Below are positions 1 through 42,085 of a stretch of DNA of 42,085 nt, piece after piece. Position 1 is the stretch's first letter. Every line of letters starts with the position of its first letter. The notes under the pieces are model-generated. The model saw only the letters and a list, made by a program, of their open reading frames with translations, was not told the origin of the DNA and ran no database searches. The DNA is taken from the IMG/VR virus record IMGVR_UViG_3300006149_000031; one strand, 5' to 3'. Position numbers and translations under genes: made by a program. Origin of the DNA: a virus.

Positions 1-77
1 ACCTGCGGAATAGCCGCCAGAGCATTAGCCGCCGCTGTTGCAGAGTTGCCCGCGCTAGTGGCAGAATTCGCGGCATT
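1..77. repeat. Terminal overlap, copy 1 (identical to 42009..42085)
   Basis: Base-by-base comparison of the first and last 77 nt shows identity. The length is typical of an assembler k-mer overlap on a circular or concatemeric template. Confidence 0.95.
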
Positions 78-1046
78 CGTCGCCGCCGTATTGATGCGTC
101 CCTCCGCCTGATCTATAGCCTCTTTAGCGGTTTCGGCGCGCTGGACAAGGGGCGTAATCGCCCCCACCGCTCTCTCCTGCGCCGTTTGCACGGCGGCAAC
201 GGCATCCGTTCGTGCGCCGGCTATATTCTGCTGCGCGGTCTGTGAGGCACGTCCCACGGCAAGAACAGAATCGGCTTGCTTGTCCTGTATGGCAGTAACA
301 GCCTCATTCCCGGCATCAACAATCTTCTTCTCCCCGTTGCTGACCGTTTCCGGCCAAGTGGTAGCCAGCGACTCCACAGCCGTTTTAGCGGCATTGGCGC
401 TCTTGGCGTCACGGGCTGCGTTAGTTGCGGACGTGCCGGCGGCGGTCGCAGAATCGGCGGCAGCATTTTTGGAGGCCCAGGCAGACCCTGCATAGCCTTC
501 CGCCTCTTCGGCCCGTGCAGCAGCGGTGGCTGCCGCGTCCGTTGCTGTCTTGGCTGCCTGGCTCGCCGTTTCCGCATTGGTGGAGGATGTGTTGGCATTC
601 TGTTGCGCCTGTTGGGCCGCGATAATGGAGGCCGTGTTGGAAAGCCACTGGGCCTTGATCGTCTTACTTGCCTCAACAGGTATCGTAATACCCATTGCAG
701 GAATATCGTACACCGTGGACGACTCAACAGGAGCCACAGAATCCACGGCCCCAATATAACCGGAAAACAGCCTCAAATCCTCTCCGGACTCATCCTGTGC
801 ATGAATGGCATACGGCCAGCGGCCAACAGGCAGGGCAGGAAAAGTAAGCTCCAAACAATGTTCTTGCTCGCCGTGTTCAATAACAACGGGCAAGTCTCCC
901 TGTTCCGTCTTCACCACACCGGTGAAAGAAACTCCTGTTACCGGGAACGGAGATTGCGTCACATCCTCGAACAAAAGCCAGCCTATGCGCTTGGCATAGC
1001 CTGCCGTCGTGGACAAATGGCGCGTCATTCCCAGAAAATTTAACAT
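1..1046 (-). CDS. Tail fibre / receptor-binding protein, N-terminal part (gene split by contig linearisation; continues at 42008..41018)
   Basis: Manual translation from ATG at 1046 (MLNFLGMTRHLSTTAGYAKR...) stays open to coordinate 1. Through the overlap it is in frame with ORF 41018..42010, giving 678 aa combined. It has a long Ala/Asn/Thr/Gln-rich shaft-like segment (..NAANSATSAGNSATAAANALAAIPQV..). A late motif lies 34 nt upstream. Confidence 0.7.
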   Translation of the reverse strand, partial: MLNFLGMTRHLSTTAGYAKRIGWLLFEDVTQSPFPVTGVSFTGVVKTEQGDLPVVIEHGEQEHCLELTFPALPVGRWPYAIHAQDESGEDLRLFSGYIGAVDSVAPVESSTVYDIPAMGITIPVEASKTIKAQWLSNTASIIAAQQAQQNANTSSTNAETASQAAKTATDAAATAAARAEEAEGYAGSAWASKNAAADSATAAGTSATNAARDAKSANAAKTAVESLATTWPETVSNGEKKIVDAGNEAVTAIQDKQADSVLAVGRASQTAQQNIAGARTDAVAAVQTAQERAVGAITPLVQRAETAKEAIDQAEGRINTAATNAANSATSAGNSATAAANALAAIPQ

Positions 1047-1062
1047 GGCTCAATCATGAGCC
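1047..1062 (-). promoter_or_regulatory. Perfect 6-bp stem / 4-nt loop hairpin abutting the tail-fibre start codon
   Basis: Plus strand reads GGCTCA-ATCA-TGAGCC, immediately 5' (in gene sense) of ATG 1046. No clear SD is present outside it. Confidence 0.4.
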
Positions 1063-1079
1063 ACAAAACACGGGAAATG

Positions 1080-1112
1080 CAAGTTGGCGAGAATCAATGT
1101 TTTTATCCCTGC
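1080..1112 (-). promoter_or_regulatory. Late-motif copy (gene sense CATTGATTCTCGCCAACTTG), 34 nt upstream of the tail-fibre ATG
   Basis: One of five copies. It is 32/33 identical to the copy at 28118..28150 and overlaps the last codons of the TerS-like gene. Confidence 0.6.
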
Positions 1113-1594
1113 TTCACGGGAGGCTCAAAAGGCAGGGAGGACAGCAGAGTTATAAAATTCTCTCCTGCATCCACTTCCATCTTCTGAGGAGTGTATGCGC
1201 CATCCATCTTGTTAAGCTCGGCAATAGCGGCGATTTTTGAGGGCATCTTAAATTTCGCTCCGGTTTCATCCATGGAAACCTCCTGACAGAGATCGGATGC
1301 GCTACCAACATTGCCGATGGGAGTTGTCACTACGCGGGACAACCATTCCATGCGCTGCTGCCTGGTCAGCACAGCAGACTTATCCAGTTGCTTATTCAAT
1401 TTGTCAATCATTCGCAAAACTTCGTCATCTTTGGACAAACGGGATGCCGCCTTGCTGGCTGCGACATTACTCATATCCTTGCGATTGTGGGCCTTACGAT
1501 AAGCGTCCGCCTTGGACAACTTTTCCGCAACCAGAAGCCTCGCAAACTCCTTCTTCTTCTCGGTCACTTTGGTCTTGTTATCCTTCCTTCTCAT
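1103..1594 (-). CDS. Terminase small subunit-like HTH protein
   Basis: 163 aa. The N-terminal segment KKKEFARLLVAEKLSKADAYRKAHNRKDMSNVAASKAASRLSKDDEVLRMI follows the pattern of P27-type small terminases (F..eY......A...AGY......a...asrLl....V). It has its own late motif upstream. Confidence 0.55.
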   Translation of the reverse strand: MRRKDNKTKVTEKKKEFARLLVAEKLSKADAYRKAHNRKDMSNVAASKAASRLSKDDEVLRMIDKLNKQLDKSAVLTRQQRMEWLSRVVTTPIGNVGSASDLCQEVSMDETGAKFKMPSKIAAIAELNKMDGAYTPQKMEVDAGENFITLLSSLPFEPPVKQG

Positions 1595-1627
1595 ACCAAT
1601 ATTTTACCCTCCTGATTTTCAGCGCGT

Positions 1628-1660
1628 CAATTTGGTGAGAATCAATACTTCTTGCCCGAG
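1628..1660 (-). promoter_or_regulatory. Late-motif copy (gene sense TATTGATTCTCACCAAATTG), 34 nt upstream of the TerS-like ATG
   Basis: Lies in the intergenic gap 1595..1664 and aligns with the four other copies. Confidence 0.55.
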
Positions 1661-1664
1661 ACAA

Positions 1665-1946
1665 TCAACCTGTTGGCTTTGAATCCTCAAGACACTCTAA
1701 AAAATCACGCCCCTGCCTGCTGATATAAAACACGCAAGGCCGTGTGCCGATTCTGATCACGTCGCCGGCCCGCACCAGATAATCCAGCCGGTGAGACACA
1801 TTGCTGGGATCCAAATGGCAACGGGTGGCAATCTCCCGCGACATCCTGCCCGGATGGTCTCGGATTTCCATCAGAATAAGCAGCTGCGACGGACTCACCT
1901 TCCGGTGTATAATGTTCCTCAATAGATTCTTATATTCCTGCTTCAT
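1665..1946 (-). CDS. Winged-helix (MarR/ArsR-like) transcription regulator; candidate late-gene activator
   Basis: 93 aa. SQLLILMEIRDHPGRMSREIATRCHLDPSNVSHRLDYLVRAGDVIRIG is a typical wHTH recognition segment. It is the last early gene directly before the first late motif. Confidence 0.6.
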   Translation of the reverse strand: MKQEYKNLLRNIIHRKVSPSQLLILMEIRDHPGRMSREIATRCHLDPSNVSHRLDYLVRAGDVIRIGTRPCVFYISRQGRDFLECLEDSKPTG

Positions 1947-14223: not shown

Positions 14224-14231
14224 GAGTCCAC

Positions 14232-14260
14232 ACCATAATGGCGCACAAAATGAAACACAA
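14232..14260 (-). promoter_or_regulatory. Weak sigma70-like promoter candidate TTGTGT-N17-TATGGT, 8 nt before ATG 14223
   Basis: Read directly. The hexamers are weaker than at the other three sites. Confidence 0.3.
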
Positions 14261-14278
14261 GCTTGCAATATTTTGGAA

Positions 14279-17200: not shown

Positions 17201-20200
17201 CGTCTTGTAAATGGAAGCCACCACGGCCATGACCCTTCCGAACGCCTCCGCGCCGTCTCCCTGCTTCACATCGTTGGCCGCGCAAACCCGGCGCCATGTC
17301 TCCAACGCTTTTGCCGTCTGGCTGCGCAGCACCTCCAAACGGTTCTTCTGCGCCTCCCGCTCCAGCGTCACCCAGACACTTTCTCTCGTGGCAAGAGAGA
17401 AACTCGCCGTCGGATCCTCATAATCCGCCCACGCTCCCCCGGTGGACTCGTCCGCAAACGCCGTAATCTTAATATCGTTGCCGTCAAAAATCACGTAATT
17501 ATACGTCTGCTTCTCCTCCGCCTTCCAGCGGGAAAAACCGTCTGCGTACCTGATGCCCCTCACTCCATGCCTTAACAGAAACTCGCTCGCCTCTCTGGGG
17601 CTTCCCAAGGCATCCTCCAACGAGCGGTAAATCTTGCCCCCCATCCAATACCCATTTTCCGGATCCTTGTCGTTGAACAAAGAATACGCTTCTTCCTTGC
17701 CCTCATCCAGAAGCCAATCTCCTATTCTGGATGTTGTAGATGAGCCGTACCCTTTATCCCAAAACAGCAGCTCCCCTCCTTCCATGAAGTCCAAATAATC
17801 CTCCACATTCAGCTCCACGCGGTAATTGGAAGGCATGCCCGTCCTGACCTCTATCTCGTCCAGATGATCAAGCAGAGAAAGTAGAAAGCCTTCCAGCTGG
17901 ACCATTTTCTCCCGCTCCTGGGGATACTCCTCCGCGTGTTTCCTGTTGATTTCAATCTCCTCCATCACCTCTCTGGCGATGTCTGAAACAGTCATGCTTC
18001 CTTTGGAGGCATCAACCAAATCGCCAAGAACAGACCAGGCGATATCTGACGCGTCCTCCTTGGCCTCCGGCAGGGCATCCTTCGGCAAAAAACTATTTAC
18101 CAGGGATCGTTGCATCACTTCTATAACGCCAGTCTCCACCTCCCGGAACTTCCATGTCGTCTTATCCTGCGCGAACTGGTTCATATAACTCCGGTTCACC
18201 TCCGGATTTTCCGCAAAATAAAGTCCCCAGCCATACGCCTGCGCTCCTTCCCCCTTGCCCATGAACGCCGTATCAAACTTGCGAAAACTGTGAGGGGAAG
18301 CATGCAGGGCAGTAATGGAGAACGTCACCCCCGGTTCCGTAATCACAGCGTTGCCCGCCTCAAAATGGCCGTCCCGGAACAAGCCCTGTTCCTGTGCCGA
18401 AACAATGGAAAACGTAATGTCCGGATTCTTCGGATCAAACGTCCCCCGGTTGTTCGTGGAGGACTTGATCTGATTCGGCTCAAAGGCAATGTACTCCGTC
18501 CATTTACCCAGTACAGCAATGAGTCCATCATGTCCTCTTTCTTGAGCACTATCGGCTATCTGGGCCGCTCCTGTCGCATACGGCCGGAATATTCCAAACC
18601 TGTCATCTTCATGAAAATTCCCATCCCAAATATTTAAATAATCGCCTATCTCTTCAGCAGACTTGTAATCATTAAAAATAAACGGATTCCTGATATTCAG
18701 AAACAGAGCCAGCTTCTTGTTCCCGTACGGAGTATTCTCCATATTGGTAAAATAAAATCCTCTACCCCATATACCATAATCAGTAGCAGATCCAATCTTG
18801 GCCTTGTCAAACACCGTGAAATCACCGTATGTCCCATGATACACCACCCTCGGCTCCCCGTTCTCGTCCACCACCTTGGAAGCATTCTGCGGATCCTTCT
18901 CCCAATCGCCAAACCAATTCTTAAACGCCGCCGTGCGCACGGCAAGCCACTGGTCTTCCGTCAGATTCGTTTCCTTCCCGTTCGGGGCCTTCATGAACGT
19001 GCCCGCAGCCACAGCTTCCTTCTTGATTGCCTCTTTTTCCAGAGATAGGGAAAACGTCGCCGGAACAATAGCCCCGTCGTCAAACCGGCATTCCACTTCA
19101 TTCACGTTGACAACATGCGCCCCTTGTGGTAAGGAAAAACCATCTCCCCCGCCAGCGGATTGGGACGGCAGAGCGGCCTTGCTTGCCGATCCTGGACCTA
19201 GGCGCGCGGTGCCGCTATTCGCGTTTGCAGGTTGTCGCTCTGCAAGGGGGAGCTTCTTCCCCAGCGGCTTCTTGCCCTGCCGCACTGGATAAGCCGAGAC
19301 AATGGAATAAAACCCGTCCTTCCGGTCCAATTGCAGCAGCATCCATGAAGAAGGCTGCCTTCCCTTAACCAGCAGCTCACGCCCGGGCGCCACCTCGTAA
19401 AGCTCGCTCACATTCGCCAGAATGGAACTGATATAGCGTTCCGGGGAACGGTCCTTCCAGAAGGAAAACCCGCGGGAAGCCAGGATATGGGTCAGTCCAT
19501 AGCCGCGATGCTCCCCGACATCGGAACCCACCAGCAGCCGCACCGGCATGGCTGGCTGCCTCTTGCGGCGCGGAATCACAAACCAGTCAGGACTTCCGTC
19601 TTCCCGGGTGACGAACGTCTCCGGAGCCAGGACAGTTCCGGAACTATCCATGGCAACCACGGAAAACGTCGCCCCGGAAACGGGCACACGCTCGAACGGA
19701 TTCACTTCACTCGTGCCGTCCCAGGCAAGGGCGCGGTCATGAAGGTGCAGCGCCGGGTCATGGGACTGCCATGCCCCCTTGGCTCTTTCCAAATCATGAA
19801 TGGCCGCATTCAAATCTGCGTCCGTCTCCAGGCGGATGCCCATCCTGCCCGCCAAATCCTTCCGCCGGCTGATGCCTCTGGACTTCTTCAGAAGGGACAG
19901 GCGTTCGGCAATCAGGGAAATCCCCCGGGCCGCAAAGCGGGCCACCTTCTCGCAATCCTCCTGCCAGGACGTATCGTTGCCGAACAAATCAAACGCCTCT
20001 CCCTCCCGGGACTTCTCCGCAGCCACCCGGTCCGCCTCCTTCACATAGGCCGCCACGTAATCCCACGGCTTCCCCTTCTCGCGCAGCTGCAGGGCAAGCA
20101 TCTGTCCCGCCTCCGTTGAAGACAGGCGGCATACCTTCCACGCCTCGTTATCCGTAATCACCCCGTTCTTCAGGCGGGTAAACACCTCATCCCCGGCCAG

Positions 20201-23200
20201 GGTGGCAATATCCCAGCCCATCACATTGGCGGAACCGGGGCGCAAATACCCCTGCGCCTCCATCTCGTCCCGGCCCATATTGGAATTCCGGACAAAAAAA
20301 GCCACCTCCAGCGCGGACGCCTGACCGTCCAGCATATTCTGCCCGACGTCGTGCATCTTCGCCCAAGTGGCGTCATGCGCATCATCTTCTTCATACACGT
20401 AAGCCGGAATAAACTCCACCCCGTCGCGCACGGCCAAATCAAACCGGTGGCGTCCGGTAATCACATGCAGGGCTCCATCCCTGCGCCGCCACACGGAAAT
20501 GGGCTGGGCGTCTTCCCGGAACCATCCCTGAAGCTCGCGCCCCTTCACGGCTCCGCGTTCATTATGATCTCCCTGCTTGAACTGCTCCACATCCGGCGCC
20601 AGGGCCAGGGAATCCACCCGCACCTGGGCAAACACGCAATCCGGCGCCACCCGCACAAACGCGTGATCGCGGAACTCCGCGCCGGCCTCTTCATCGTGTT
20701 CGGCCTCTTCCCCCACCCCCTCCAGGGAGCCGCCGGCATCCTCCACCAGCGGAGCGGGGGATGCCGAATTCCCGGCAATGCCGGTCACGGGATCAGTCTC
20801 ATCCTCCTCTTCCGCGGTCTCTTCCACATCCTCCGCGGCATCCATCCGCGCCATGGACTCTTCCAGTGCCTCCAGCTCGCCCAGCGTCATCGTGGCATCC
20901 CCCGGAGCCCTGCGGGAAGCAAGGTCCGCGTGCACCATCTCCACATCCAGTTTCTGCGCGGCATCCATCCGCGCCTGGCGGAAAACGCTCTCCGTACTCA
21001 CGCCCACGGCCTGCAGGGCGTCTGCCAGGCCTCCGTGCTCTTCCATAAACTTCTTCCCCTCGTCCGTCGCGGCAAACTCGTTCCATTGCTCGCCCATGCG
21101 TATGATGCGGGCGGAATCCTCCAGATTCTTCAGGGCGAACTCCGCGGTGTCCTTCACCCACTGTGGCACGGGCAGGCTCTCAATATCCGCCAGGGAGGAA
21201 GACAGGGACAGGTTGGAAAAACTTTCCACCACGTCCCTGGCATCATGCGCCGGGCCCTCATACGTCCCCAGACTCACGCCGTACCTTCCCAACACGGCGT
21301 CCGCCGCCTGCAAATGCTCCCACAAATCCTGCCAATCCTTCCCGGTCAGGTTCATGTAATGAACCAGGGCGGACTCCTGCACATCCTCCATCACGTTGGC
21401 CGTCGTGGCATGGCCTCCTGCGTAAAGCAGCAGGGAACTCCCAGGATCGGTCGCCATCGTAAACCGGTGGGCGAAGCTGGCCGCCGCCGTGCCGTTCCTG
21501 ATCTCCTCGGATCTCCCCCTCGTAATCTCTCCGGAACGCACTGCATGATCAAGACGCCTCTCAAAAGCCGCCGCCAAATCGGCAATGGAACCAAGCTGAA
21601 CCTTCCCCATCACTTCGGCATCCGTCCTGCTTCTGGCTTCCTGGACGGACACGCCCTCTTCCCGGACAATCGCGTCAATCCTCGCCTGGGCTCGCGCGGC
21701 CACATCCATCAACCCCGGGACGGTCATCCCTCCGGTTTCGGCGGCCGCCTTCCGGTACTCCGCAGGCGCTTCCTCGGACAACATATCCAGCGTCTCAATA
21801 AAATCCATCTTCCCGGCTTCCGAAATCGCGGCATTCCCCAGCACGGCATCCTGCATCACGCGGACGCCATTCAAATAAGCCCCCTGCAGCACTACCTGAA
21901 CCAGGGCGTCCGTCTGCTCCTCGTTCATCTCCACGCTCCTGTCTTCCTCCATCTTCACGCCGTTCACTACAGCGCCCTCCCGCAGGCTCACCTCGTACCT
22001 GTCCGTTCCTTCCAGCTTGCGGATACGGCCAATGTTGGCCTTCTCCAGCACCTTGTCCAGAGCGCCGGACATCTGGTACAGCCGGGCCTCCTGCCGGTCC
22101 GCCAGCTCGGCGCCGGCCTTCCGCGCCCGTTCGGCGGCTCCTTCTGGATCCTTCAATACATCAGTCTCGAAATACTTCTGGGCCAGCGCAGCCTTGTGCT
22201 CCGCCGTGGAAAAAGACGCCATCTCTTCGGCATGCTTCTTCGTATATCCGGCCAGCTGGGCCCGCTGCGCATCCGTCACGAACGCCGCCACTTCCTGCTT
22301 CATCCTCGGAGCGTGGCCGGCAGCCATGGCCGCCACAAACAACGCGCATCCGCCGGACTGCTCCACATCCCCCATCGCCTGAAGCACGGGGCCCACCACC
22401 TCGAAATCCTTCGGCTTCACCTCCATTCCCGTCATCCCGGACAACTTCCGGGCCGTCCACTCGAACAACTCCCCGGCCAGAGGTTCCGCCGCCATCTCTT
22501 CCACGTAGGCAAACGCCGGGGTGGAAAGCATCTTGCCGGTTCTCGTCCCGGCAAAAAACGTGCGCCCCGGCACCTTCGCGGCCAGTCTCGCCAGGGCGCC
22601 GGTTCCCGTCCTGGTCATCAGCTTGTTGATGGCCCCCATGCGCCCGAACACGGAAAACACCCCAAACCCCTTTTCCTCCACCGTATTCCGCAGCCCGTTG
22701 ATCGTCACGTCCACCAGGGAATCCCCGTTGCGGGAGGCGGCATTCCCGGCGTGCCCCATATCCCCGGCCAGCGCCAGGGCCCAGCCGCCGGGAGCCATGT
22801 AGGAAAGGCTCTGCCCGGTGATATTCCCGGCTCCGTTAATCGCCTTGACGTACCAGGACGCATCAGGGCTCGTGCCCCGCATCCGCTGTCCGAACTCGTG
22901 CATCACATCCTGCATCGTATTCAGCGCTTCGCGTCTTTGCTCGTAGCGGTCGAAGAGCTGCCTTTGTCCGTCAAACGTATCCTTCACCCCCTGCAGGGGA
23001 GCAATATTATTGGAATACCACTCTTCCATTCCGCTCATGCCGGGAATGCCCCTCACCGCCTGAACCGCCTTCACGCCCAGGCTCTCCGCGCCGCGCGCCG
23101 TGTCGGCAAAACTTCTATACAAATTGCGCCAGAAAGCAGCGGAATCCGTCTGGCTCTCCTGAACCTTCCGGTCAATCGCGGTCATCAGCAACATCAACGC

Positions 23201-24106
23201 CTGCTGGTCCAGCACCTCATTCCCGTTGACATTCACTGTCAGCAGATCGGCCATGTCCAGCGCGTCGGAGCGCCAGACATCCTCAAACCCGCGCCTCTCG
23301 GCAAAAGCATACGCCCGCCGCGCCCTCATGATGGAATCGGCAGCCTTCTGCGGACTCTCGGCATACTTCAGCAAATCGGCAGGACACGCGTCCCAGCTGC
23401 CTTCCTTCCCGGCTACGCAATCCACTATCCGGCGGGAAATCTCCTCCTGTTCAGTCTGAACCCTCTTCAGATTTTCATTATAGGCGTCCAGCGTCTTCTG
23501 ATGCCTCCCTTGAAAATCCTTCCAAATCTGGTCTGCCGTAACAACATCTGTTCCCCACAAATTGTTGGCGTTCTTGTAAATCTGGCGGCCTACATCTCTA
23601 TCTCCGTCACCGATGGTCTCCATCAGGCGATTCCCAAGCATATAAGCTCGGTCATGTTCGCTAGCCAGATCAAGGCGGTTCAGAGCATCTTGGCCCCAGA
23701 GTTCCGCAGCTTTCTTTCTGCCCTCTCCATCCATGGCCCCGGCCCGCAGCACATCCATCAGCCGGGCCTGCTTATCCTTTCTGCGCCTCTCTTCTCGCTC
23801 TGCTGCGCCGTACATCATCATAGCCCCCTGGTCATGCAGGGATTCAGGATCCGTCAGCTGCGGACGGAACTCCGTTTCGGAAGGATCTTCCGGAGCAGGA
23901 AAAGGGGAAGGAGTGGTTTCCATCACGTCGCTTCCATTCAAAAGATTAATGTCGGCTGCTGCTTGCTCCTGTCCTGTTCCCGGTTCCATCTCCGGCAGGT
24001 GAAATCCGGCGGCAGCCTCGCCCTCCGGCAGCGGCAGGGAGGAAAAAGAAAGATCCAGAGGCATATCCGCAGCGTCGGCCCCGTCAAAGGAAAAATTGTC
24101 GTTCAT
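14279..24106 (-). CDS. Giant (3275 aa) polyvalent virion/ejection protein
   Basis: Single uninterrupted ORF at the end of the internal-protein gene block. It contains a ParB-like module, two ART-like modules and a possible RNase-like module. The C-terminal third is hydrophobic and Gly/Ala-rich (..GGWFGAMLGAPVAMIGGVPMLGAAVEFG..), as expected for an ejection/channel protein. Confidence 0.8.
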   Translation of the reverse strand: MNDNFSFDGADAADMPLDLSFSSLPLPEGEAAAGFHLPEMEPGTGQEQAAADINLLNGSDVMETTPSPFPAPEDPSETEFRPQLTDPESLHDQGAMMMYGAAEREERRRKDKQARLMDVLRAGAMDGEGRKKAAELWGQDALNRLDLASEHDRAYMLGNRLMETIGDGDRDVGRQIYKNANNLWGTDVVTADQIWKDFQGRHQKTLDAYNENLKRVQTEQEEISRRIVDCVAGKEGSWDACPADLLKYAESPQKAADSIMRARRAYAFAERRGFEDVWRSDALDMADLLTVNVNGNEVLDQQALMLLMTAIDRKVQESQTDSAAFWRNLYRSFADTARGAESLGVKAVQAVRGIPGMSGMEEWYSNNIAPLQGVKDTFDGQRQLFDRYEQRREALNTMQDVMHEFGQRMRGTSPDASWYVKAINGAGNITGQSLSYMAPGGWALALAGDMGHAGNAASRNGDSLVDVTINGLRNTVEEKGFGVFSVFGRMGAINKLMTRTGTGALARLAAKVPGRTFFAGTRTGKMLSTPAFAYVEEMAAEPLAGELFEWTARKLSGMTGMEVKPKDFEVVGPVLQAMGDVEQSGGCALFVAAMAAGHAPRMKQEVAAFVTDAQRAQLAGYTKKHAEEMASFSTAEHKAALAQKYFETDVLKDPEGAAERARKAGAELADRQEARLYQMSGALDKVLEKANIGRIRKLEGTDRYEVSLREGAVVNGVKMEEDRSVEMNEEQTDALVQVVLQGAYLNGVRVMQDAVLGNAAISEAGKMDFIETLDMLSEEAPAEYRKAAAETGGMTVPGLMDVAARAQARIDAIVREEGVSVQEARSRTDAEVMGKVQLGSIADLAAAFERRLDHAVRSGEITRGRSEEIRNGTAAASFAHRFTMATDPGSSLLLYAGGHATTANVMEDVQESALVHYMNLTGKDWQDLWEHLQAADAVLGRYGVSLGTYEGPAHDARDVVESFSNLSLSSSLADIESLPVPQWVKDTAEFALKNLEDSARIIRMGEQWNEFAATDEGKKFMEEHGGLADALQAVGVSTESVFRQARMDAAQKLDVEMVHADLASRRAPGDATMTLGELEALEESMARMDAAEDVEETAEEEDETDPVTGIAGNSASPAPLVEDAGGSLEGVGEEAEHDEEAGAEFRDHAFVRVAPDCVFAQVRVDSLALAPDVEQFKQGDHNERGAVKGRELQGWFREDAQPISVWRRRDGALHVITGRHRFDLAVRDGVEFIPAYVYEEDDAHDATWAKMHDVGQNMLDGQASALEVAFFVRNSNMGRDEMEAQGYLRPGSANVMGWDIATLAGDEVFTRLKNGVITDNEAWKVCRLSSTEAGQMLALQLREKGKPWDYVAAYVKEADRVAAEKSREGEAFDLFGNDTSWQEDCEKVARFAARGISLIAERLSLLKKSRGISRRKDLAGRMGIRLETDADLNAAIHDLERAKGAWQSHDPALHLHDRALAWDGTSEVNPFERVPVSGATFSVVAMDSSGTVLAPETFVTREDGSPDWFVIPRRKRQPAMPVRLLVGSDVGEHRGYGLTHILASRGFSFWKDRSPERYISSILANVSELYEVAPGRELLVKGRQPSSWMLLQLDRKDGFYSIVSAYPVRQGKKPLGKKLPLAERQPANANSGTARLGPGSASKAALPSQSAGGGDGFSLPQGAHVVNVNEVECRFDDGAIVPATFSLSLEKEAIKKEAVAAGTFMKAPNGKETNLTEDQWLAVRTAAFKNWFGDWEKDPQNASKVVDENGEPRVVYHGTYGDFTVFDKAKIGSATDYGIWGRGFYFTNMENTPYGNKKLALFLNIRNPFIFNDYKSAEEIGDYLNIWDGNFHEDDRFGIFRPYATGAAQIADSAQERGHDGLIAVLGKWTEYIAFEPNQIKSSTNNRGTFDPKNPDITFSIVSAQEQGLFRDGHFEAGNAVITEPGVTFSITALHASPHSFRKFDTAFMGKGEGAQAYGWGLYFAENPEVNRSYMNQFAQDKTTWKFREVETGVIEVMQRSLVNSFLPKDALPEAKEDASDIAWSVLGDLVDASKGSMTVSDIAREVMEEIEINRKHAEEYPQEREKMVQLEGFLLSLLDHLDEIEVRTGMPSNYRVELNVEDYLDFMEGGELLFWDKGYGSSTTSRIGDWLLDEGKEEAYSLFNDKDPENGYWMGGKIYRSLEDALGSPREASEFLLRHGVRGIRYADGFSRWKAEEKQTYNYVIFDGNDIKITAFADESTGGAWADYEDPTASFSLATRESVWVTLEREAQKNRLEVLRSQTAKALETWRRVCAANDVKQGDGAEAFGRVMAVVASIYKTLPEGYRFGLYPYMRAAENLATRLEDGQAWLSDELKKETLMDDTSERMDAVIDKLLARTLEQADRYAVDQMRAEMVARIKAVQPTKKASGKFNKGKLSAEDYRHLHGIVAMMNTDQEAKEKRMLELEGVLSSNQSTEEERGAAELELKDWHTFGYLAGMGLEQTRACARALALFITTGRTAWSTRLDEERRRTKFKAEKIVEGLGQATPQGGRDAEEDAKASTRTKAAKYLKYGLQSYSQLLNGWKKIPALRGLAHAEVTAIAEANVALRNMKHARDREVTALVKRCFGVQRTKDVARVLSDFKKTGDSGVVLNPLVKVERTVRIAEAREWVGLSFEEREERRKAIRKEYNDRGLSDDKASVPEALIPEMRRQLAELDELVKAGDGRARRRKNITAKEEVVRPGRKGETLKVSRAQAMYAILLYEQAEYVETMRNEGIGEAEVARLREFVGAEGLAFGYGLRELMNRQGKLLARVYEEREGVPFPAVENYFRAVFRADHKLDTKASFGEQTNAVAGGAKYGMLIPRRKHNLHLAWNMDCEAVFQAASAEVENYICTADITARWRGILADKEAAASLKEHMGRHGIDSLRHWLDVIDGAGVMEGGALLAGAQATSRFQSAKAVALLAWNVLTMLKQTSGLMHGMFAGEVGMGSFLLHLGQTMSMTGRMGVFEVMKTEAFRARTNDAQAELVSQLMGYASDQNYTGAIRFSMAGMRAIEKMDVWSNAVSMAALYNAKWAELEEAGKRTGVPMTDDEMHALCMQSVTRALELVAQPLTQSQKSMLGASTGLFAKMACFMSSEVLNKVGMIVSHVSSGNWGQALALYGMMSVAEQTVIALWHALLDDEDEWEKNGGWFGAMLGAPVAMIGGVPMLGAAVEFGYKQATGQRIYAGTASGVIDYSAIYRAAKNTWKAVTGEKEMTFADWAELILLDAKAAAYVAGAGAGSRSKAADSVASWLLSVAGVANLSKPGFKLAE
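17459..18331 (-). other. Second, diverged module with parallel motif layout (aa ~1926-2216)
   Basis: TALHASPHSFRKFDTAFMGKGEGAQAYGWGLYFAEN ... GVRGIRYADGFSR..TYNYVIFDGNDIKITAF has the same order of H / aromatic-YF / terminal strand motifs as the preceding module, with a large insert. Confidence 0.35.
18407..18964 (-). other. ADP-ribosyltransferase-like module (H-Y-E type, polyvalent-protein family), aa ~1715-1900
   Basis: AAFKNWFGDWEKD..KVVDENGEPRVVYHGTYGDFTVFD (H), GIWGRGFYFTN (Y), KWTEYIAFEPNQIKSSTNNRGTFDPKNPDITFSI (E). Confidence 0.65.
19277..19669 (-). other. Unassigned module (aa ~1480-1610) with a GEHRGYGLTHILASRG motif; possible PBECR-type RNase
   Basis: The G.G..HI...R motif is reminiscent of phage Barnase-EndoU-ColE5/D-RelE-like domains found in polyvalent proteins. 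Assignment from memory only. Confidence 0.25.
20267..20659 (-). other. ParB/Srx-fold nuclease-like domain of the giant protein (aa ~1150-1280)
   Basis: ..ISVWRRRDGALHVITGRHRFDLAVRDGVEFIPAYVY.. resembles the ParB motif (DG..y.vidGhHRl.Aa...G...iP). Confidence 0.6.
23511..23675. repeat. 165-bp direct repeat, copy B (inside the giant gene, aa 145-199)
   Basis: See copy A. Confidence 0.9.
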
Positions 24107-27539: not shown

Positions 27540-28085
27540 CTACAAAATGGAACGATCCAAAATATCCTTCAGCGGATGCTGGTCATTGCTCCCGCGCTGG
27601 CTCACATCGTGATACAGGGCGTCGGCAACATACCCCCTGTACAACTCCAAAAACACGCCCACATTCTGCGGCTTGCCCGTCACCGTGGCCGCCACCTTGG
27701 AAGCCAGCAAACACTTCACGGCCTCCACAAACAAAGGCTCATGATCCGGCAGCATCTCTGCCAAAGCCGCCTCATTGGACAAAAACCGCACCTGCAGCAG
27801 GGAAGGAGCTTCCTCGCAAATCACCACGCGGCCGGCCATGCGCCAGCGCCTGGCCTCCACCTTCAACAACTTCAGGCAATCCTCCGGCAGCGGAAACCGG
27901 CCGTTCCCCTCCGGGCACGCCAGCACGGCCTCCTTCGTGGCAAACGACCACGGGCCATAGGAAACGGCCTCCAGCATCACGGATGGAAACCACAACTCGC
28001 AAGCCCTGGCCGCCGGGGAATCCATCACAAACTCCTGATCCCCCAGCAGGGAAAGGCACTGTGAAAAAAACGTCAGCTTATCCAT
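27540..28085 (-). CDS. Head-tail adaptor / tail tubular protein A-like
   Basis: 181 aa starting at MDKLTFFSQCLSLLGDQEF.. (ATG 28085). The N-terminal pattern L..LG......d....a......L....W.Fa resembles the gp11/adaptor class. A late motif lies 33 nt upstream. Confidence 0.45.
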   Translation of the reverse strand: MDKLTFFSQCLSLLGDQEFVMDSPAARACELWFPSVMLEAVSYGPWSFATKEAVLACPEGNGRFPLPEDCLKLLKVEARRWRMAGRVVICEEAPSLLQVRFLSNEAALAEMLPDHEPLFVEAVKCLLASKVAATVTGKPQNVGVFLELYRGYVADALYHDVSQRGSNDQHPLKDILDRSIL

Positions 28086-28117
28086 TCCCCAACAATCGCA
28101 TGAGGGCGGACTTCCTT

Positions 28118-28150
28118 CAAGTTGGCGAGAATCAATGTTTCTATCCCTGC
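28118..28150 (-). promoter_or_regulatory. Late-motif copy (gene sense CATTGATTCTCGCCAACTTG), 33 nt upstream of ATG 28085
   Basis: Lies in the intergenic gap after the terL stop. It is 32/33 identical to the copy at 1080..1112. Confidence 0.6.
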
Positions 28151-32700: not shown

Positions 32701-33156
32701 CCGGAACTCCTCATACCGCCAGGGGCGGGCCTTAAACTCATAGGGCGCCAGGGAAAACATGCCCTCGTCATCCCGTCTCAGCACCATCAGCTCATGCGTA
32801 GGGCAGGCCAGAAACAACATGCTGTTCACCTGCTTGTGGCGCAGGGCGGCAACGTCAGCCGCCGTCCACACGGAAGGCAGGGAGGCAACCACATCCCCCT
32901 CAACGGACAACACGCGCAGCAGAGAAGGAGCCACCTCCACAAGAAAACGGTCATTGGTGGAATAAACATAGGGAAGAAGAAGGGAACCCTCCAAAGCGGC
33001 GGCCACCCTCCTCATCCCGTGCCGCCGGGAAACTCCCCCCGTTTGGGAAACATCCACATTCTCCAGCACGGACGCCCCGCGATGATAAACATCCAGATCC
33101 GGACGCGCGGCAATCCCGGGCGAAAGCTCGCCTCCATTAAAGGAAATCCTCTTCAT
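29767..33156 (-). CDS. Large tail/nozzle protein (tail tubular protein B-like), 1129 aa
   Basis: Start at MKRISFNGGELSPGIAARPDLDVYHRGASVLENVDVSQTGGVSRRHGMRRV (ATG 33156), an N-terminal pattern typical of podovirus tail/nozzle proteins. ATGA overlap with terL. A late motif lies 36 nt upstream. Confidence 0.55.
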   Translation of the reverse strand: MKRISFNGGELSPGIAARPDLDVYHRGASVLENVDVSQTGGVSRRHGMRRVAAALEGSLLLPYVYSTNDRFLVEVAPSLLRVLSVEGDVVASLPSVWTAADVAALRHKQVNSMLFLACPTHELMVLRRDDEGMFSLAPYEFKARPWRYEEFRDFPVRLTLDEGCYRVSFGEHASDADAAVNEGDVMRVQVTVPQQTGFSTGAVIRQGWVVAGAFTAASAFTAGKKLCLNEGSYWSWWTCDRDFNGAADFVDGLTSPADYPEHFHKGVICHSNTITCKGTWKFWCSKEWYGTYAVERRFPDEDWQLLGTSTSMVGSASNLQITGDESEEECYLRLMLYESRLSSGSDPSQGFPPDSCGNKLVVDAYKKDVVLRLRSGSRPASIQRFSVPATPALRHFLTCTASSIRASRVWVDEVEVPGASAVLTLGPDGVDVTPRGLPADALEDGKTVRFAWTEPRKSGAVTLDARGMRTDFWPAGARFDVNVTGNALTGMGEGAVVRLTAWSAGDAQFTTVWKSSADVYTAPASGFYTVKVVHDKGSTLEAAECQAEFSGVASGVVKPEVREEMSAAGLSTSDVLKLTLPLEGDAYDYCVYAGLPAVNALVVDGERFSGECPLSREGRTLTVRPRGLTTDDVGAGSMVRLEWTQAAESVNKSGNGNAASIFMSRFLTAGTVVTLQGWRSVQSGMEIVLPSTIKGMSGGRYAEVFSAMEEASYTVPEDGLFLISVQAWTESNVKLRSRVRVEVPACTAWMEAEAAEVTASAEYSLWDNVSAVPEGVPPSGESLMWSFAAFRGVYGFPSLVDVFQQRLVLAATQAQPQTVWLSKTDDLNSFEVGKQDDSALALTLSTTTQNRICWLMAQSSQLLLGTADAEWTVSGGQGVMTYANARADSHGFVGSSDVPALMATDKVLYVERGGGRVYQYGYDYESDGFVSRDLTVFADHVLAGGGGVTSGDFMRKPHPRAVMTLADGTLALMTYNSMHQVHAWHRHRTEGRMSNAVVLPNGTGEDLLFVSVEREDGRFVEVFDPDGPFVDAGAWDFTSTVVTNALDVAESLGRDRQAAAVRVFFASDTAPAGIEVSNDGSAWDRLSKTRTMERGWHEVLPSAMWRRDVRFGIRVSGDRPLEFLAVDTQ

Positions 33157-33191
33157 TTCCCCTGAACATAACCCAGGGCGTTCAACCGGGG

Positions 33192-33222
33192 CAAGTTGGC
33201 GAAAATCAACGTTTCTTCTCCG
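33192..33222 (-). promoter_or_regulatory. Late-motif copy (gene sense CGTTGATTTTCGCCAACTTG), 36 nt upstream of ATG 33156
   Basis: Intergenic, immediately downstream (in gene sense) of a strong terminator. Confidence 0.55.
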
Positions 33223-33228: not shown

Positions 33229-33260
33229 CAAAAAGGGCCGCCTCCATGCAGAGACGGCCC
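33229..33260 (-). terminator. Rho-independent terminator after the capsid/decoration genes
   Basis: Minus sense GGGCCGTCTC-tgcatg-GAGGCGGCCC followed by TTTTTG. Confidence 0.65.
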
Positions 33261-33285
33261 TATGGACAAACCGACGGAAAAAAAA

Positions 33286-33773: not shown

Positions 33774-34742
33774 TTAAGAAAGCTGCTTGCACTTAATCTG
33801 CACAAACGCCTCTTCGCGCATGCGGGTGGCTCCCATAATCGTCTTAAGGCCGATCTGGATCGTGTCCTCCTTATCGGAGCGCTTCTCCACCGTCACCTTA
33901 TTCTGCTTCCAAGAACCGAAATACAGGGAATTCTTCATCCACATCGGGCAAATGATATCCCCGTCCTCGTCAAGCGGCAAATTGGGAGCAATGATAAACT
34001 GAATCCCCATAATCGGATCCAGGGCGCCGTTGCTCTTGCGCAGGGAGGAAAAACCGAAATCCGCCTTCTGCAGACGCTCGTCATTAATCAGGGCCTCGCG
34101 CATGCGGGGAGTAATCGCGCAGCACACCTGGTCGCCGTAGGCATTGGAAGCATCATCCAGAATCCCGTTCTCCTGCAGCAGCGTAATACCACGGTTCAGC
34201 TTCTCAATCGTCAGCGGGCAATCCTTAGCCGTGCCGCCGGTATAATCGACTGCCACCACATTAGCCTCCAGCAATTCCAGCTGTTCCATGCCGTCATTGC
34301 CGGCAAACGCCGTCCCGAAAATGCCGCCCTTGGACGGCACATATACCCCTCCCTGCTTCTTCAGGCCGAACAAAACATCGTCCATCTTGCGGGCAGCCGC
34401 GTACTTCAGCGCGTTAATCGTCTGCGTCACGGGAGCGTCCAGGCCGTGCAGGAAAATATCGTCATCCTCATCATAGCCCAAATGCTTCGAAAAACTAACC
34501 GGCAGCATCCGGCGCTTGAAATAATCAAGCTCGTCCAACACAATATCCTGCATCCGGCCCTGCTTCTCATTCAGCTCCGTAGTACCGACAAAACTGAACT
34601 CCTGGAGCTTGCCCGTCAAACCGGACTTGATCACGCAGAAACGTTCCAGGCGGGACGTAGCCTGCTGAACCTGCTCCTGCCACTGGTTATCGTAAGTCTC
34701 CTGATAAAGATCGGAGATGGGTAAAGTGTAATTACTTGGCAT
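33774..34742 (-). CDS. Major capsid protein
   Basis: 322 aa from MPSNYTLPISDLYQ.. (ATG 34742). Size and position follow the scaffold gene, with the integrase cassette intervening. A late motif lies 33 nt upstream. Confidence 0.65.
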   Translation of the reverse strand: MPSNYTLPISDLYQETYDNQWQEQVQQATSRLERFCVIKSGLTGKLQEFSFVGTTELNEKQGRMQDIVLDELDYFKRRMLPVSFSKHLGYDEDDDIFLHGLDAPVTQTINALKYAAARKMDDVLFGLKKQGGVYVPSKGGIFGTAFAGNDGMEQLELLEANVVAVDYTGGTAKDCPLTIEKLNRGITLLQENGILDDASNAYGDQVCCAITPRMREALINDERLQKADFGFSSLRKSNGALDPIMGIQFIIAPNLPLDEDGDIICPMWMKNSLYFGSWKQNKVTVEKRSDKEDTIQIGLKTIMGATRMREEAFVQIKCKQLS

Positions 34743-34774
34743 GCTTCCATCAGGGGACAGAAACCGCACATTTG

Positions 34775-34800
34775 CAAGTTGCCGAGTGTCAATTCAGTTG
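34775..34800 (-). promoter_or_regulatory. Late-motif copy (gene sense AATTGACACTCGGCAACTTG), 33 nt upstream of the capsid ATG
   Basis: The most diverged of the five copies, but it keeps the invariant TTGA..TC..CAA.TTG positions and the same spacing. Confidence 0.5.
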
Positions 34801-34839
34801 CAGAATCTCCAATTCGGCATCTTGTCTCTGTCATACAGA

Positions 34840-35027
34840 CGTTACAGAAGTGTTACAAATTGAAGCAAATTATTTATAGAAATAAACTTAACACCCACTC
34901 TCTCCGCCAAAAGTTTCTGTAAGAAAACCTACGTAAACCTTGATAACGTAGGGGATTATGAATAAGGTTCGTGTAGGTTTTCTTACGCGAACCTTATTAC
35001 AAAACCATTACAGAAGATATTACAGGT
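34840..35027. promoter_or_regulatory. Candidate attP / integrase control region
   Basis: TTACAGAAG occurs at 34842 and 35008, with further TTACA(A/G) copies at 34853, 34996 and 35020. Nested inverted repeats: GTAAGAAAACCTAC 34919..34932 / GTAGGTTTTCTTAC 34973..34986; CCTACGT 34928 / ACGTAGG 34946; AATAAGGTTCG 34961..34971 / CGAACCTTATT 34988..34998. Confidence 0.45.
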
Positions 35028-36167
35028 ATGAGCAAACCTTTTTACAAGGGGCGTCTGTCCATCAACAAGGAAAAATCCTCGCCCTACTGGATGGTGACAT
35101 TTCAGGGGCCGGACGGCAAGATGAAGCGCCGTTCCACGAAAGTTCCTGTGAATGGCGGCGAGTTCGAGGGAGACCGCATCACGGCCAAGCTGGCGGAACG
35201 TATCGCCTACCAGCGGGGCGTGCAGATAGCCTGCGCGGAAGCGGAAGAATACCAGGTGCACAACAATGTTTCCGTGCGGACTTGGTGTGACGGATTTGTT
35301 GGGCGCAAGGCGGCTCTTGTCTCCGAACAGACGGCCTACAATGCCAGAACCGCCTGCAAGCATTTTTACGAGTATCTGGGGGCGCGGGCGAACGCCCCCC
35401 TTCGCCTGATCACCAAGGCGGACATCAAAGGCTTTGTGGCGGCTCGCCGCGAACTGGTGCGGCAAAAGACTGTGTACAAGGATATGTCCGTTCTTTCCCA
35501 GGCATTCGCGGATGCCGTGGATTCAGAAGTAATTGACCGCAATCCGTGCGCCGGCGTTTCCATTCCCCCGGACCGTGCCGGGGAAAAGCTGCACAAGGAA
35601 GCCTTCACACTCGACGAGATCCGCTACATGATTGAGCATTTCCCGCCCCTGTGGAGTTCCGCGGTACGCTGCTCGTTTGAAACCTACGGCCAGCGGCTGG
35701 GGGATATTCTGCGCCTCAACTGGAATCAGTTTGACTGGGAACGCCGCATCGTGCGCTTTGACACGGGCAAAACGGGGCGCTGGATGGACCAGCCCATGAG
35801 AGAAGGCTTTTACCAATGGGCGCTTGCCCGCTGGAAGGAAGCGGGGGAACCGGCGGATGAACTACTTCACGCGCCCCTGCTGGCCCTGGGGGATGGCGCG
35901 TCCTATCAATTCGGCCTCCTGTTGCGCACCCATGGCATCGGCGTGGTGCATGGAGCGGCCGGCGGCCGCAGAAGGAGGATGAACAGCAAGTCCTTCCACA
36001 GCATTCGGGCCACGGCGGCCACGTTGTTGCAGGCATCAGGCGTATCGCAGGGGCTGGCCATGGAGCTGGTGGGGCATGACTCTTCCGCCGTGCATAGCGT
36101 GTACATCCGCCCCTCCGTGGATCAGCTGCGCTCCGCTGCGGAATCCCTACCGGAACTTCTTCCTTAA
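35028..36167 (+). CDS. int: Tyrosine integrase
   Basis: 379 aa with catalytic signature GQRLGDILRL (Arg), FHSIRATAAT (H-x-x-R) and LVGHDSSAVHSVYIR (His, Tyr). Confidence 0.9.
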   Translation: MSKPFYKGRLSINKEKSSPYWMVTFQGPDGKMKRRSTKVPVNGGEFEGDRITAKLAERIAYQRGVQIACAEAEEYQVHNNVSVRTWCDGFVGRKAALVSEQTAYNARTACKHFYEYLGARANAPLRLITKADIKGFVAARRELVRQKTVYKDMSVLSQAFADAVDSEVIDRNPCAGVSIPPDRAGEKLHKEAFTLDEIRYMIEHFPPLWSSAVRCSFETYGQRLGDILRLNWNQFDWERRIVRFDTGKTGRWMDQPMREGFYQWALARWKEAGEPADELLHAPLLALGDGASYQFGLLLRTHGIGVVHGAAGGRRRRMNSKSFHSIRATAATLLQASGVSQGLAMELVGHDSSAVHSVYIRPSVDQLRSAAESLPELLP

Positions 36168-40609: not shown

Positions 40610-41025
40610 TTGATTATGTTGTTATTGGTAGGGGTAGTGAAGAAATTGAAAAACGCCACGGCGGCGAGGTCGGTCAGGATAAAAGCCGGGTAGTCACGGG
40701 CAGTGAACACCCTGCGTCCCCCGTGGGGATTAACGGCCTCCACGGTCAAATCCACGGCTTCCACCGTCCGCATGGGGTCATCCTCCTCCGGAGCGTAAAA
40801 CTCTTTCAGCCGCGCCCACACCTGCACCGCCAGCCACGGTTCCGCCAGTCCAACCAGCGCGGCAACGACGGCCTCCATGGCCGGAGCCTGATCCGCGGGT
40901 ATATCGTCCTGATTAAAGCGGGCCGGAGGTCTATAACCGCCCGCGTCCCGGTAAATGGGCGTCAGGGTGAATTCCTGCCAGTTGCCGGGCCGGGGGAACT
41001 GAATCTGTATTTCTGAATTATTCAT
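40606..41025 (-). CDS. Hypothetical protein directly downstream of the tail fibre gene (possible fibre chaperone)
   Basis: 139 aa. Overlaps the tail-fibre stop by 8 nt. Confidence 0.35.
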   Translation of the reverse strand: MNNSEIQIQFPRPGNWQEFTLTPIYRDAGGYRPPARFNQDDIPADQAPAMEAVVAALVGLAEPWLAVQVWARLKEFYAPEEDDPMRTVEAVDLTVEAVNPHGGRRVFTARDYPAFILTDLAAVAFFNFFTTPTNNNIIK

Positions 41026-42085
41026 AAGGTGTAAATTCTGTTACGGTGGTTGACTGTATCAACCGGGTTTCCAACGCCCGGAACGCATCATAAGCCCCAT
41101 TAGGCTGGTTATACCCCGGAGCCGTCATCTGCCGCATCGCTCCAAGATAACTATGCGTATTGGTCCCGTCGCTATCCCAATACAAAGCCCCAACGCCAGT
41201 CCAGGAGAACGTGTCAACAACGCCGTGCATGTCGGCAATGCACAACAAACGGCGAGAATCCGCCGCATTAGAGCCAATCCACAATCCCGCTCTGACGTCG
41301 CGGCCCGGCCTATCCTGTTGATAAGAAAGAAACATATTGCAGGACGGGTTGGTATTGGTGGACGGGAAAACGGAAAGCGTTTCATAACATAACCACTTGG
41401 CCTGAGTGGAATCATAGACGAGTTCCCTCACCCTCACCGGATAACCCGCCGGATTCATGGACGCGTCATTAACCATGTAAAACGTCACATCAACAAACCG
41501 CGGGAAACTCGCGGTACTACCGGAGGCCGGAGACAGCGTGAACATATCCATCTCCGCCGCCGTCTTCTTGACGAAATTTCCCGGCCTTCCCAACGAGAAA
41601 GTCAGTTTGCGGGCGGCAGTACTGCCGGTATTGCCCAAAGCGACTGGCAGGACAAACCCGCTCCATCCAGAATAATTGGATACTCCTAAAAATGGATTTA
41701 TCAGGTTAATCTGAATTGTTCCCGGATATGCGGACATCTTGCGGAGTCGCCACACCTGGCCGGGAACCGTCTGTTCTACGGCGACGCTCTCGCCGTACAA
41801 ATTAAAATCAGAAAGGAAACTCTGAGGAGAAAACGCCTCCGTCACGGCGGCCAGCCCGGAAGCGTACAGGCGATTAACGCCGGATTCATTGGTCGGCGCC
41901 CCCACGGCCAGCGGGATGTTGATGCCGCCGTTGGCGTTGACGGTCCCGTCAAACGTGCCTCCCGCGGCAGTGATATTGCCGGGAAGCGTCATGTTGCCGG
42001 ATTCGTCCACCTGCGGAATAGCCGCCAGAGCATTAGCCGCCGCTGTTGCAGAGTTGCCCGCGCTAGTGGCAGAATTCGCGGCATT
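41018..42085 (-). CDS. Tail fibre / receptor-binding protein, C-terminal part (continuation of 1046..1 across the circular junction)
   Basis: The frame is continuous through the 77-nt overlap (..AAIPQ-VDESGNMTLPGNITAAGGTFDG..). The 'M' at 42010 in the ORF track is an internal GTG (Val). Confidence 0.7.
   Translation of the reverse strand, partial: NAANSATSAGNSATAAANALAAIPQVDESGNMTLPGNITAAGGTFDGTVNANGGINIPLAVGAPTNESGVNRLYASGLAAVTEAFSPQSFLSDFNLYGESVAVEQTVPGQVWRLRKMSAYPGTIQINLINPFLGVSNYSGWSGFVLPVALGNTGSTAARKLTFSLGRPGNFVKKTAAEMDMFTLSPASGSTASFPRFVDVTFYMVNDASMNPAGYPVRVRELVYDSTQAKWLCYETLSVFPSTNTNPSCNMFLSYQQDRPGRDVRAGLWIGSNAADSRRLLCIADMHGVVDTFSWTGVGALYWDSDGTNTHSYLGAMRQMTAPGYNQPNGAYDAFRALETRLIQSTTVTEFTPYE
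42009..42085. repeat. Terminal overlap, copy 2 (identical to 1..77)
   Basis: See copy 1. Confidence 0.95.

Follow-up and report, generated by a model that had tools for sequence, protein, structure and literature searches.

Activator-dependent late promoters are already known from several phages: the late promoters Plys, PI, PP and Pmom of phage Mu are activated by C, those of P2, 186 and P4 depend on Ogr-Delta-B, and those of P1 on Lpa. In Gram-positive phages, the gene for an activator of the RinA, LtrC or ArpU type lies immediately upstream of terS, and its product turns on packaging, morphogenesis and lysis genes (PMC3152322, PMC3753634). Here, five late promoters of comparable design are described in the IMG/VR virus record IMGVR_UViG_3300006149_000031, a stretch of 42,085 nucleotides (the window) whose host is very probably Akkermansia. 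In this temperate phage, five copies of an oriented box stand at a nearly constant distance before the first ATG of five late gene blocks. We propose, with a probability of roughly 0.6 and on the basis of sequence comparison, that the boxes are the upstream activator elements of five weak sigma70-type promoters giving leaderless late transcripts, and that a 93-amino-acid (aa) winged helix-turn-helix (wHTH) protein is the likely activator. Such a design is not conceptually new; it is found here in an unstudied phage group, for which no published work on gene regulation or promoters in Akkermansia phages was found, as judged by titles and abstracts.

As in Mu, four to five late promoters are dispersed and combine a poor -35 with a -10 that can be recognised; a conserved activator site overlaps the -35 (centred near -43), and the activator would be a small helix-turn-helix protein whose gene is the last one ahead of the late region. 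However, C belongs to the Mor/C family and not to the MarR-type winged helices, its site is a clear dyad, the Mu late transcripts carry leaders, and the host is enterobacterial. The P2/186/P4 and P1 systems are similar in that each late operon possesses one phage-specific upstream box, fixed relative to a sigma70 -10 and read by a small phage activator. They differ in that Ogr is a zinc-finger protein acting at a site near -55 (TGT-N12-ACA), whereas the Lpa box is a 9-bp inverted repeat near -22, and neither system is leaderless. With the RinA/LtrC/ArpU activators the wHTH gene shares its place upstream of terS at the early/late boundary, a synteny that is kept over several phage clades despite divergent proteins (PMC3152322, PMC3753634). 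The protein itself does not belong with them by sequence: it gave no match to the RinA and ArpU models, and the Pfam and NCBIfam scans returned just MarR/ArsR-type matches. Moreover, those phages use essentially one late promoter before terS and one long operon, in contrast to the five promoters of the window, and some Akkermansia clades carry no box at terS.

A sequence-only reading of the window had pointed to five copies of a 20-nt element, and all of them were confirmed, at 1080-1099, 1628-1647, 28118-28137, 33192-33211 and 34775-34794, the 20-mers at 1080-1099 and 28118-28137 being identical. The pattern TTGANNNTCNNCAANTTG, made from the invariant positions named in that reading, matched five times in the 42,085 nt, always on the minus (gene) strand, against 0.01 matches expected from dinucleotide-preserving shuffles. 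When a weight matrix built from 14 sequence variants was applied, the five sites scored 26-32 bits and nothing on either strand fell between 8 and 26 bits; since the scores are so cleanly bimodal, the window has exactly five sites and these are not a product of chance. The conserved unit proved longer than 20 nt, reaching about 29 nt, in which an A-rich extension of 11 nt (GGnAAnAAnnn) lies 5′ of the core. All five sites are on the minus strand. Site 1 (1080..1108, promoter P_X) joins extension GGATAAAAACA to core TTGATTCTCGCCAACTTG, and its upstream part overlaps the terS stop codon; site 2 (1628..1656, P_terS) joins GGCAAGAAGTA to TTGATTCTCACCAAATTG; site 3 (28118..28146, P_adaptor) joins GGATAGAAACA to TTGATTCTCGCCAACTTG and overlaps the TerL stop codon; site 4 (33192..33220, P_tail) joins GAGAAGAAACG to TTGATTTTCGCCAACTTG; and site 5 (34775..34803, P_mcp), beside the inferred attP/att end in the prophage, joins CTGCAACTGAA to TTGACACTCGGCAACTTG. 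The gap between the box and the first ATG is 33, 33, 32, 35 and 32 nt at sites 1-5, so that the fixed spacing reported earlier stands, with a range of 32-35 nt in place of 33-36 nt. Each copy heads one of five late transcription units, as had been stated. Terminators had also been placed before two of the copies; one clear case was found, an intrinsic terminator with a 12-bp stem and a T-run (33234..33261, minus strand) that ends the capsid unit just upstream of site 4, and the hairpin near site 1 (1065-1044) lies downstream of the box. The box is asymmetric and oriented, its conserved dyad being a weak 3-bp TTG-N8-CAA; a search for a strong dyad or direct repeat gave at most this dyad and a GGCAA...GSCAA repeat 20 nt apart.

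The box (hereafter box A) was then followed in relatives from IMG/VR, whose TerL is 98-100% or 88% identical and whose TerS is 77-100% identical to that of the window. A search with the degenerate pattern KTGAYWYTCRSCAAMTTG, allowing at most two mismatches, over 1.27 Mb of related Akkermansia-phage loci recovered 209 copies, every one of them on the gene strand. These copies represented 54 unique sequence contexts, all before the same five gene classes, and the first ATG was found 32-36 nt downstream in 54/54. The sequence-only reading had named an equal frequency inside coding regions of related genomes as one refuting outcome, and the motif was not found there. Positions 5-6 of the box are free, because the window itself carries TT and CA variants, and the clade at 88% identity uses the variant GTGACACTCGSCAACTTG. 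The 11-nt extension, in forms such as GGCAAGAAGTA and GGATAGAAACA, moves with the box where the upstream gene differs (L006, L010, L014). Some relatives carry an additional gene between TerL and the adaptor gene, and there the box remains with the latter. In the 88% clade, the promoter of gene X is a copy of the capsid-type promoter. When degenerate box patterns were scanned over IMG/VR, they returned mostly single chance matches in unrelated contigs.

The nature of the promoter becomes apparent when the last three bases of the box, TTG, are taken as the conserved half of a -35 hexamer. This TTG is invariant in 5/5 sites and is followed by a spacer of 17-18 nt, a weak -10 and the ATG. On the minus strand, the core of P_X (1044..1082) reads TTGCAT (1082-1077), 18 nt, CATGAT (1058-1053), 6 nt and ATG at 1046-1044; that of P_terS (1592..1630) reads TTGACG, 18 nt, TAAAAT (1606-1601), 6 nt and ATG at 1594-1592; that of P_adaptor (28083..28120) reads TTGAAG, 17 nt, (TGc)GATTGT (28097-28092), 6 nt and ATG at 28085-28083; that of P_tail (33154..33194) reads TTGCCC, 18 nt, TATGTT (33170-33165), 8 nt and ATG at 33156-33154; and that of P_mcp (34740..34777) reads TTGCAA, 17 nt, CCTGAT (34754-34749), 6 nt and ATG at 34742-34740. 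An A at position 2 and a T at position 6 were present in 4/5 of the -10 hexamers, and CCTGAT at the capsid site has C at position 2. The earlier denial of a -10 hexamer at sigma70 spacing is therefore not upheld, since an A2+T6 hexamer appears at 17-18 nt in 4/5 sites once the 3′ TTG is the -35. The usual -35/-10 elements with 16-18-nt spacing are present in a weak form (7-10/12 matches), and a generic promoter scan picked up just P_terS among the late promoters (10/12), the other four reaching 7-8/12. Such weak core elements have the look of activator-dependent promoters.

Comparison among relatives supported this assignment of the -10. The distance from the box to the hexamer is 20-21 nt in all variants. 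In the tail promoter of relatives the spacer is almost fully diverged and the hexamer is still TATGTT, TATATT or TATAGT, and the capsid promoter shows CCTGAT or CATGAA; a hexamer kept while its spacer diverges is a phylogenetic footprint of the -10. The interval between box and ATG had been described as not conserved, which is mostly true, the -10 hexamer being the exception. The element thus looks like a host-sigma70 promoter combined with an activator box and not like a promoter for a different polymerase, so that of the earlier proposal of a phage-specific late promoter or activator site, the promoter-associated, phage-lineage-specific and strictly oriented character was retained and only the denial of a sigma70-type -10 was lost. 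Other registers were tried and rejected: with the 5′ TTGAYW of the box as the -35, nothing -10-like lies 17 nt downstream, and with its terminal TG as an extended -10, no -10 follows. A sigma54 or extracytoplasmic function (ECF) promoter was likewise rejected by its spacings, and the absence of a sigma54 signature was confirmed, as GGCAAC and TTGC in the box are just ~7 nt apart, versus the 10 nt needed between GG and GC.

The position of the -10 bears on the transcripts as well. The gap between the -10 and the ATG is 6 nt at 4/5 sites and 8 nt at the tail site, and a -10 ending 6 nt before the ATG leads to an expected start on the A of the ATG. The late transcripts are probably leaderless, starting at the A of the ATG or 2-3 nt before it. 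The constant distance between box and ATG, which had been left as an unexplained property, is accounted for if the start site coincides with the ATG or is no more than 2-3 nt away from it. Box-linked genes start with ATG in 5/5 cases, as supported by the N-termini of homologues, and they have no Shine-Dalgarno sequence at functional spacing, with G-rich stretches merely 1-2 nt from the ATG; those internal genes that carry a clear ribosome-binding site have GGAGG 6-9 nt before the ATG. The same register was found at the promoter of the repressor gene, which is near-consensus (TTGACA-16-TAATAT-caatgc-ATG, 6 nt); the CI-like repressor mRNA would be leaderless too, as lambda cI from PRM. Known leaderless transcripts, lambda cI among them, share with these promoters a -10 located 6-7 nt before an AUG that is both start site and start codon, with no Shine-Dalgarno sequence. 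They differ in scale, given that the arrangement would here cover the first gene of every late operon and the repressor gene, and in this phage it is deduced from sequence alone. In A. muciniphila, ~10% of transcription start sites were leaderless and promoters carried -35/-10 signals, as seen by Cappable-seq in a mouse gut community (PMC4782308).

At 1044-1065, at 34740-34775 and in promoters of the 88% clade (L019 11009 onward, L027 1038 onward), inverted repeats were observed whose arms flank the -10-like hexamer and which extend as far as the ATG. Their RNA-fold z values range from -2.1 to -3.4, significantly beyond shuffles in 3/8 sequences tested; the repeat of site 1, GGCTCA-tgat-TGAGCC (1065-1044, z -3.4), covers its -10 and ATG. 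No such repeats were present at the terS and tail promoters or in the whole of the second box clade described below.

If +1 is the A of the ATG, the centre of the box core lies at -41.5/-42.5 in four promoters and at -44.5 in P_tail, which is class II geometry, these figures depending on the leaderless assumption; the 18-bp core would then span about -51 to -33 and the A-rich extension would reach -61 to -64. In the mechanism we envisage, the wHTH protein would build up from the early operon and bind the box at the class II position, abutting or overlapping the -35, of which the terminal TTG of the box would form the conserved half. RNA polymerase would be engaged at a weak -10 (nATnnT) after the 17-18-nt spacer, with 6 nt (8 nt in P_tail) left to the ATG, and the transcript would begin with the A of the ATG or 2-3 nt upstream of it. 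In this way, leaderless late mRNAs would be produced and all five late units turned on.

A distant clade (TerL 43% identity) has a comparable arrangement. It comprises an Akkermansia metagenome-assembled genome (MAG; L001) and the IMG/VR contigs behind L035, L036 and L106, the last of which provided the wHTH-terS region. At equivalent places, including directly after TerL, these phages carry an unrelated box, CGTKTGYGGGAATAGSTKTTTT (box B), which was located at L001 259, 1375, 2499 and 11724, at L036 108, 1233 and 11658 and at L106 ~745. Between box B and an extended -10, TGnTAnnAT, lie 10-11 nt, and from this -10 exactly 6 nt lead to the ATG at 7/8 sites and 9 nt at the eighth. The two sets compensate in opposite ways: box-A promoters keep the -35 TTG and mostly have no TG, whereas box-B promoters have no -35 and always have the TG extension. 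A degenerate second copy of box B was noted 21 nt upstream at two sites (L001 1354, L036 87). The search for a third box type covered the clades with 63%, 58% and 45% TerS identity, where none could be defined, each locus offering one intergenic late promoter and the prophage contigs ending right after TerL. When L348, a contig of a more distant Akkermansia-type phage, was searched for repeats, coding-region noise and an 11-nt tandem array were the sole outcome; this array, at L348 7164-7250, consists of ~8 repeats TGTCAGACAnn and is iteron- or origin-like.

As to the protein reading the box, the wHTH gene (1665..1946, minus strand) had already been named as a candidate regulator, and that choice was strengthened. 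It closes the early operon, directly upstream of P_terS. Its 93-aa product matched Pfam MarR_2 with 32.1 bits against a cut-off of 27 bits, and the AlphaFold2 model (predicted local distance difference test, pLDDT, 86.7) shows alpha1, alpha2, the helix-turn-helix, the wing and alpha5, with no alpha6. In Foldseek searches of the PDB, nearly all of the best 50 matches listed were MarR-family regulators, with a query-normalised TM of ~0.75. Among 20 early proteins, it was the sole one present in 23/23 box-A relatives, at an identity of at least 86%, the 23 being the loci with a full 10-kb flank upstream of terS. Besides the wHTH gene, near-universal small open reading frames (ORFs) were noted at 9313-9528 and 9525-9743 of the window. 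Its recognition helix, DPSNVSHRL, takes the form DPSNVSHRLDYL, which is essentially invariant in the aligned box-A relatives (63-85% identity to the window wHTH). In the L266 clade, where the wHTH is 32-36% identical, the helix reads SSSRLCFHLNTL and no copy of box A is present. A wHTH gene is found directly upstream of terS in the box-B clade and in three further clades (L106, L266, L294, L288), with a different helix in each. Like the MarR regulators SlyA, RovA and OhrR, the protein has a wHTH fold with alpha1 and alpha5 dimer-interface helices, and some members of that family (SlyA, RovA) act positively. It differs from them in its 93-aa length with no C-terminal alpha6 and in the asymmetry of its putative site; no ligand-binding role is expected, and it would be a class II activator and not a repressor or counter-silencer.

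Other candidates for this role were sought among the early and structural proteins with PHROGs and Pfam, and neither an RNA polymerase nor a sigma factor nor any further DNA-binding domain was detected. The box is not read by the CI-like repressor either, because the immunity repeats (TCAG-N8/9-GCTGWAA) are unrelated to the box, and the immunity region holds no box copy. The wHTH protein is the best activator candidate, on correlative grounds.

Several points weigh against this proposal. First, the inverted repeats over the -10 and ATG would fit a transcribed leader better. Second, the -10 hexamers are weak, CCTGAT lacks the A at position 2, and the tail promoter requires a discriminator of 8-9 nt. 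Third, two small early proteins (71 and 72 aa) are also near-universal, at 22/23 and 21/23. Fourth, MarR-family proteins are mostly repressors that bind palindromes, and the box is asymmetric with only the weak TTG-N8-CAA dyad. Finally, the link between wHTH and box consists of co-occurrence in two box types and synteny, and the wHTH of the box-B clade showed no significant similarity to that of the window (nothing by BLASTP; hhalign E 0.009, at low probability), so that the two proteins are regarded as no more than positional analogues.

The predominance of repressors in the MarR family raises the alternative that the box is an operator at which the wHTH or another repressor holds the late promoters shut in the lysogen or in early infection, comparable to promoter-proximal operators and mycobacteriophage stoperators. 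A protein bound over the -35 could equally occlude RNA polymerase, P_terS is near-consensus (TTGACG-18-TAAAAT, 10/12) and might not need activation, and the oriented, intergenic sites are stoperator-like. Nevertheless, we regard this as unlikely. The other four promoters, at 7-8/12 and with poor -10s, are typical of activator dependence, and a box centred at -41.5/-42.5 fits class II activation. The wHTH gene comes last in the lytic early operon, in the position of Mu C, lambda Q and RinA, which means that it would be expressed just before the late genes are needed. Furthermore, the stoperators of cluster A mycobacteriophages are the same site as the immunity operator and are bound by the immunity repressor, and here the repeats at 11380-11490 differ from the box.

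It is also conceivable, though quite improbable, that the box is by itself the complete promoter or specificity element for a non-sigma70 machinery, whether a phage sigma-like factor, a phage polymerase or a host alternative sigma, with transcription starting just past the box and yielding a ~30-nt leader that carries a hairpin over the start codon at some sites. The block of 18-29 nt is asymmetric and strictly oriented, as in promoters of single-subunit polymerases and alternative sigma factors, the inverted repeats between box and ATG, which are its main support, fold significantly better than shuffles in three of the eight sequences, and the 3275-aa giant protein is largely unannotated. Against this, neither a polymerase nor a sigma domain was found in any ORF, including a cognate gene for a T7- or N4-like single-subunit polymerase promoter; the earlier remark that the phage has no RNA polymerase gene agrees with this, and the giant matched just ART-PolyVal. 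The sigma54 and ECF spacings do not fit, and the phage, which is temperate, encodes a CI-like repressor and has early promoters of the canonical sigma70 type. In addition, the register of TTG, 17-18 nt, A2-T6 hexamer, 6 nt and ATG is kept while spacers diverge, and the box-B clade has a textbook extended -10 located 6 nt from the ATG and no hairpins. A hairpin over an ATG devoid of a Shine-Dalgarno sequence would also be a poor design for capsid-level expression. Lastly, that the repeats are packaging or terminase recognition sites, or recombination linkers for modular exchange, is very improbable: the wHTH gene adjoins terS, some terminase accessory proteins are winged helices and the boxes stand at mosaic junctions (the gene inserted between TerL and box, the 88%-clade X promoter copied from the capsid type), but neither function needs a fixed register to a -10-like hexamer and ATG over five genes and 54 variants or a strand bias of 209 versus 0, and recombination at repeated promoters is an expected side effect and not a function.

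The activator-element interpretation can be placed on the genome of the phage, as annotated with PHROGs and Pfam. The terminal 77 nt of the window (1-77 and 42009-42085) are identical, which indicates a circular assembly with a true length of 42,008 bp, and contigs of relatives span the window ends. As for the host, the sole relative of TerL in the genome collection is an Akkermansia MAG and the G+C content is ~56%; human-gut assemblies hold relatives as integrated prophages, and megablast of 9 kb of the window found no match among GenBank phages. Nearly all genes are on the minus strand. The CI-like repressor gene (11497-12258, plus strand) is separated from a divergent early promoter (TTGAAA-17-TAATTT) by the three operator-like repeats at 11380-11490. 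The leftward early operon (minus strand) contains, in order, a Cro-like gene, RecT, a RecE-like exonuclease, RusA, a methyltransferase, a 338-aa protein and the wHTH gene. In box-A phages the early region is extremely mosaic, with varying methyltransferase and replication genes, and the RecT/RecE/RusA module of the window is replaced in essentially 23/23 relatives (L037-L075, upstream of terS).

The late genes follow on the minus strand. Site 2 heads terS (1594-1103), and site 1 heads gene X, which encodes a tail-fibre-like protein of 678 aa (1046..1 joined to 42008..41018); this gene is cut by the window junction, and its C-terminal part is variable among relatives. The unit continues with small genes, an Amidase_3 endolysin, the portal and a protease/scaffold gene down to 36221. 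Site 5 heads the major capsid gene (34742-33774, phrog_3437 match), site 4 a 1129-aa tail protein starting at 33156 and TerL, and site 3 an adaptor-like tail gene starting at 28085 (phrog_394 match), followed by a 785-aa glucosaminidase-domain protein and the 3275-aa polyvalent protein. The ORF of the latter (14279-24106, minus strand) occupies ~23% of the genome; its sole detectable domain is ART-PolyVal (ADP-ribosyltransferase of polyvalent proteins, aa 1747-1890), and the giant probably belongs to the virion proteins that are ejected. A DUF6804 protein gene (13342-14415, minus strand), situated between this ORF and the immunity region, may be a lysogenic-conversion or moron gene; as called, ~137 nt of it overlap the giant ORF at the 3′ end of the latter, and the position of its true start is uncertain.

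The tyrosine integrase gene (35028-36167), on the opposite (plus) strand, is placed amid morphogenesis genes, with the scaffold/protease gene on one side and the capsid promoter on the other. Prophage contigs of relatives stop at ~34894-35037, and other contigs begin 120-250 nt upstream of the capsid box. Because contigs of relatives start and end there, attP is probably located in the 34800-35027 region, and integration would split the late region, so that the two prophage ends would carry the capsid promoter and int, respectively.

A broader proposal, which we hold tentatively and at somewhat short of even odds, is that Akkermansia temperate phages possess undescribed miniature MarR-fold late activators encoded beside terS, each with a lineage-specific recognition helix and a box of ~25-30 bp at about -42, and that their late programme, together with the repressor gene, is leaderless throughout. 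If the proposal made here is true, it would provide a complete late-transcription map of a common human-gut prophage, with five units under one switch, and together with box B a second example set of co-diversification between activator and box. It would also be further evidence that Akkermansia phages use leaderless initiation systematically. The box is a simple marker for late operons and gene starts in related metagenomic contigs. A small activator and a 60-bp promoter that is silent without it would form a compact and portable pair for a genetically intractable gut bacterium, useful as an orthogonal expression switch for Akkermansia engineering.

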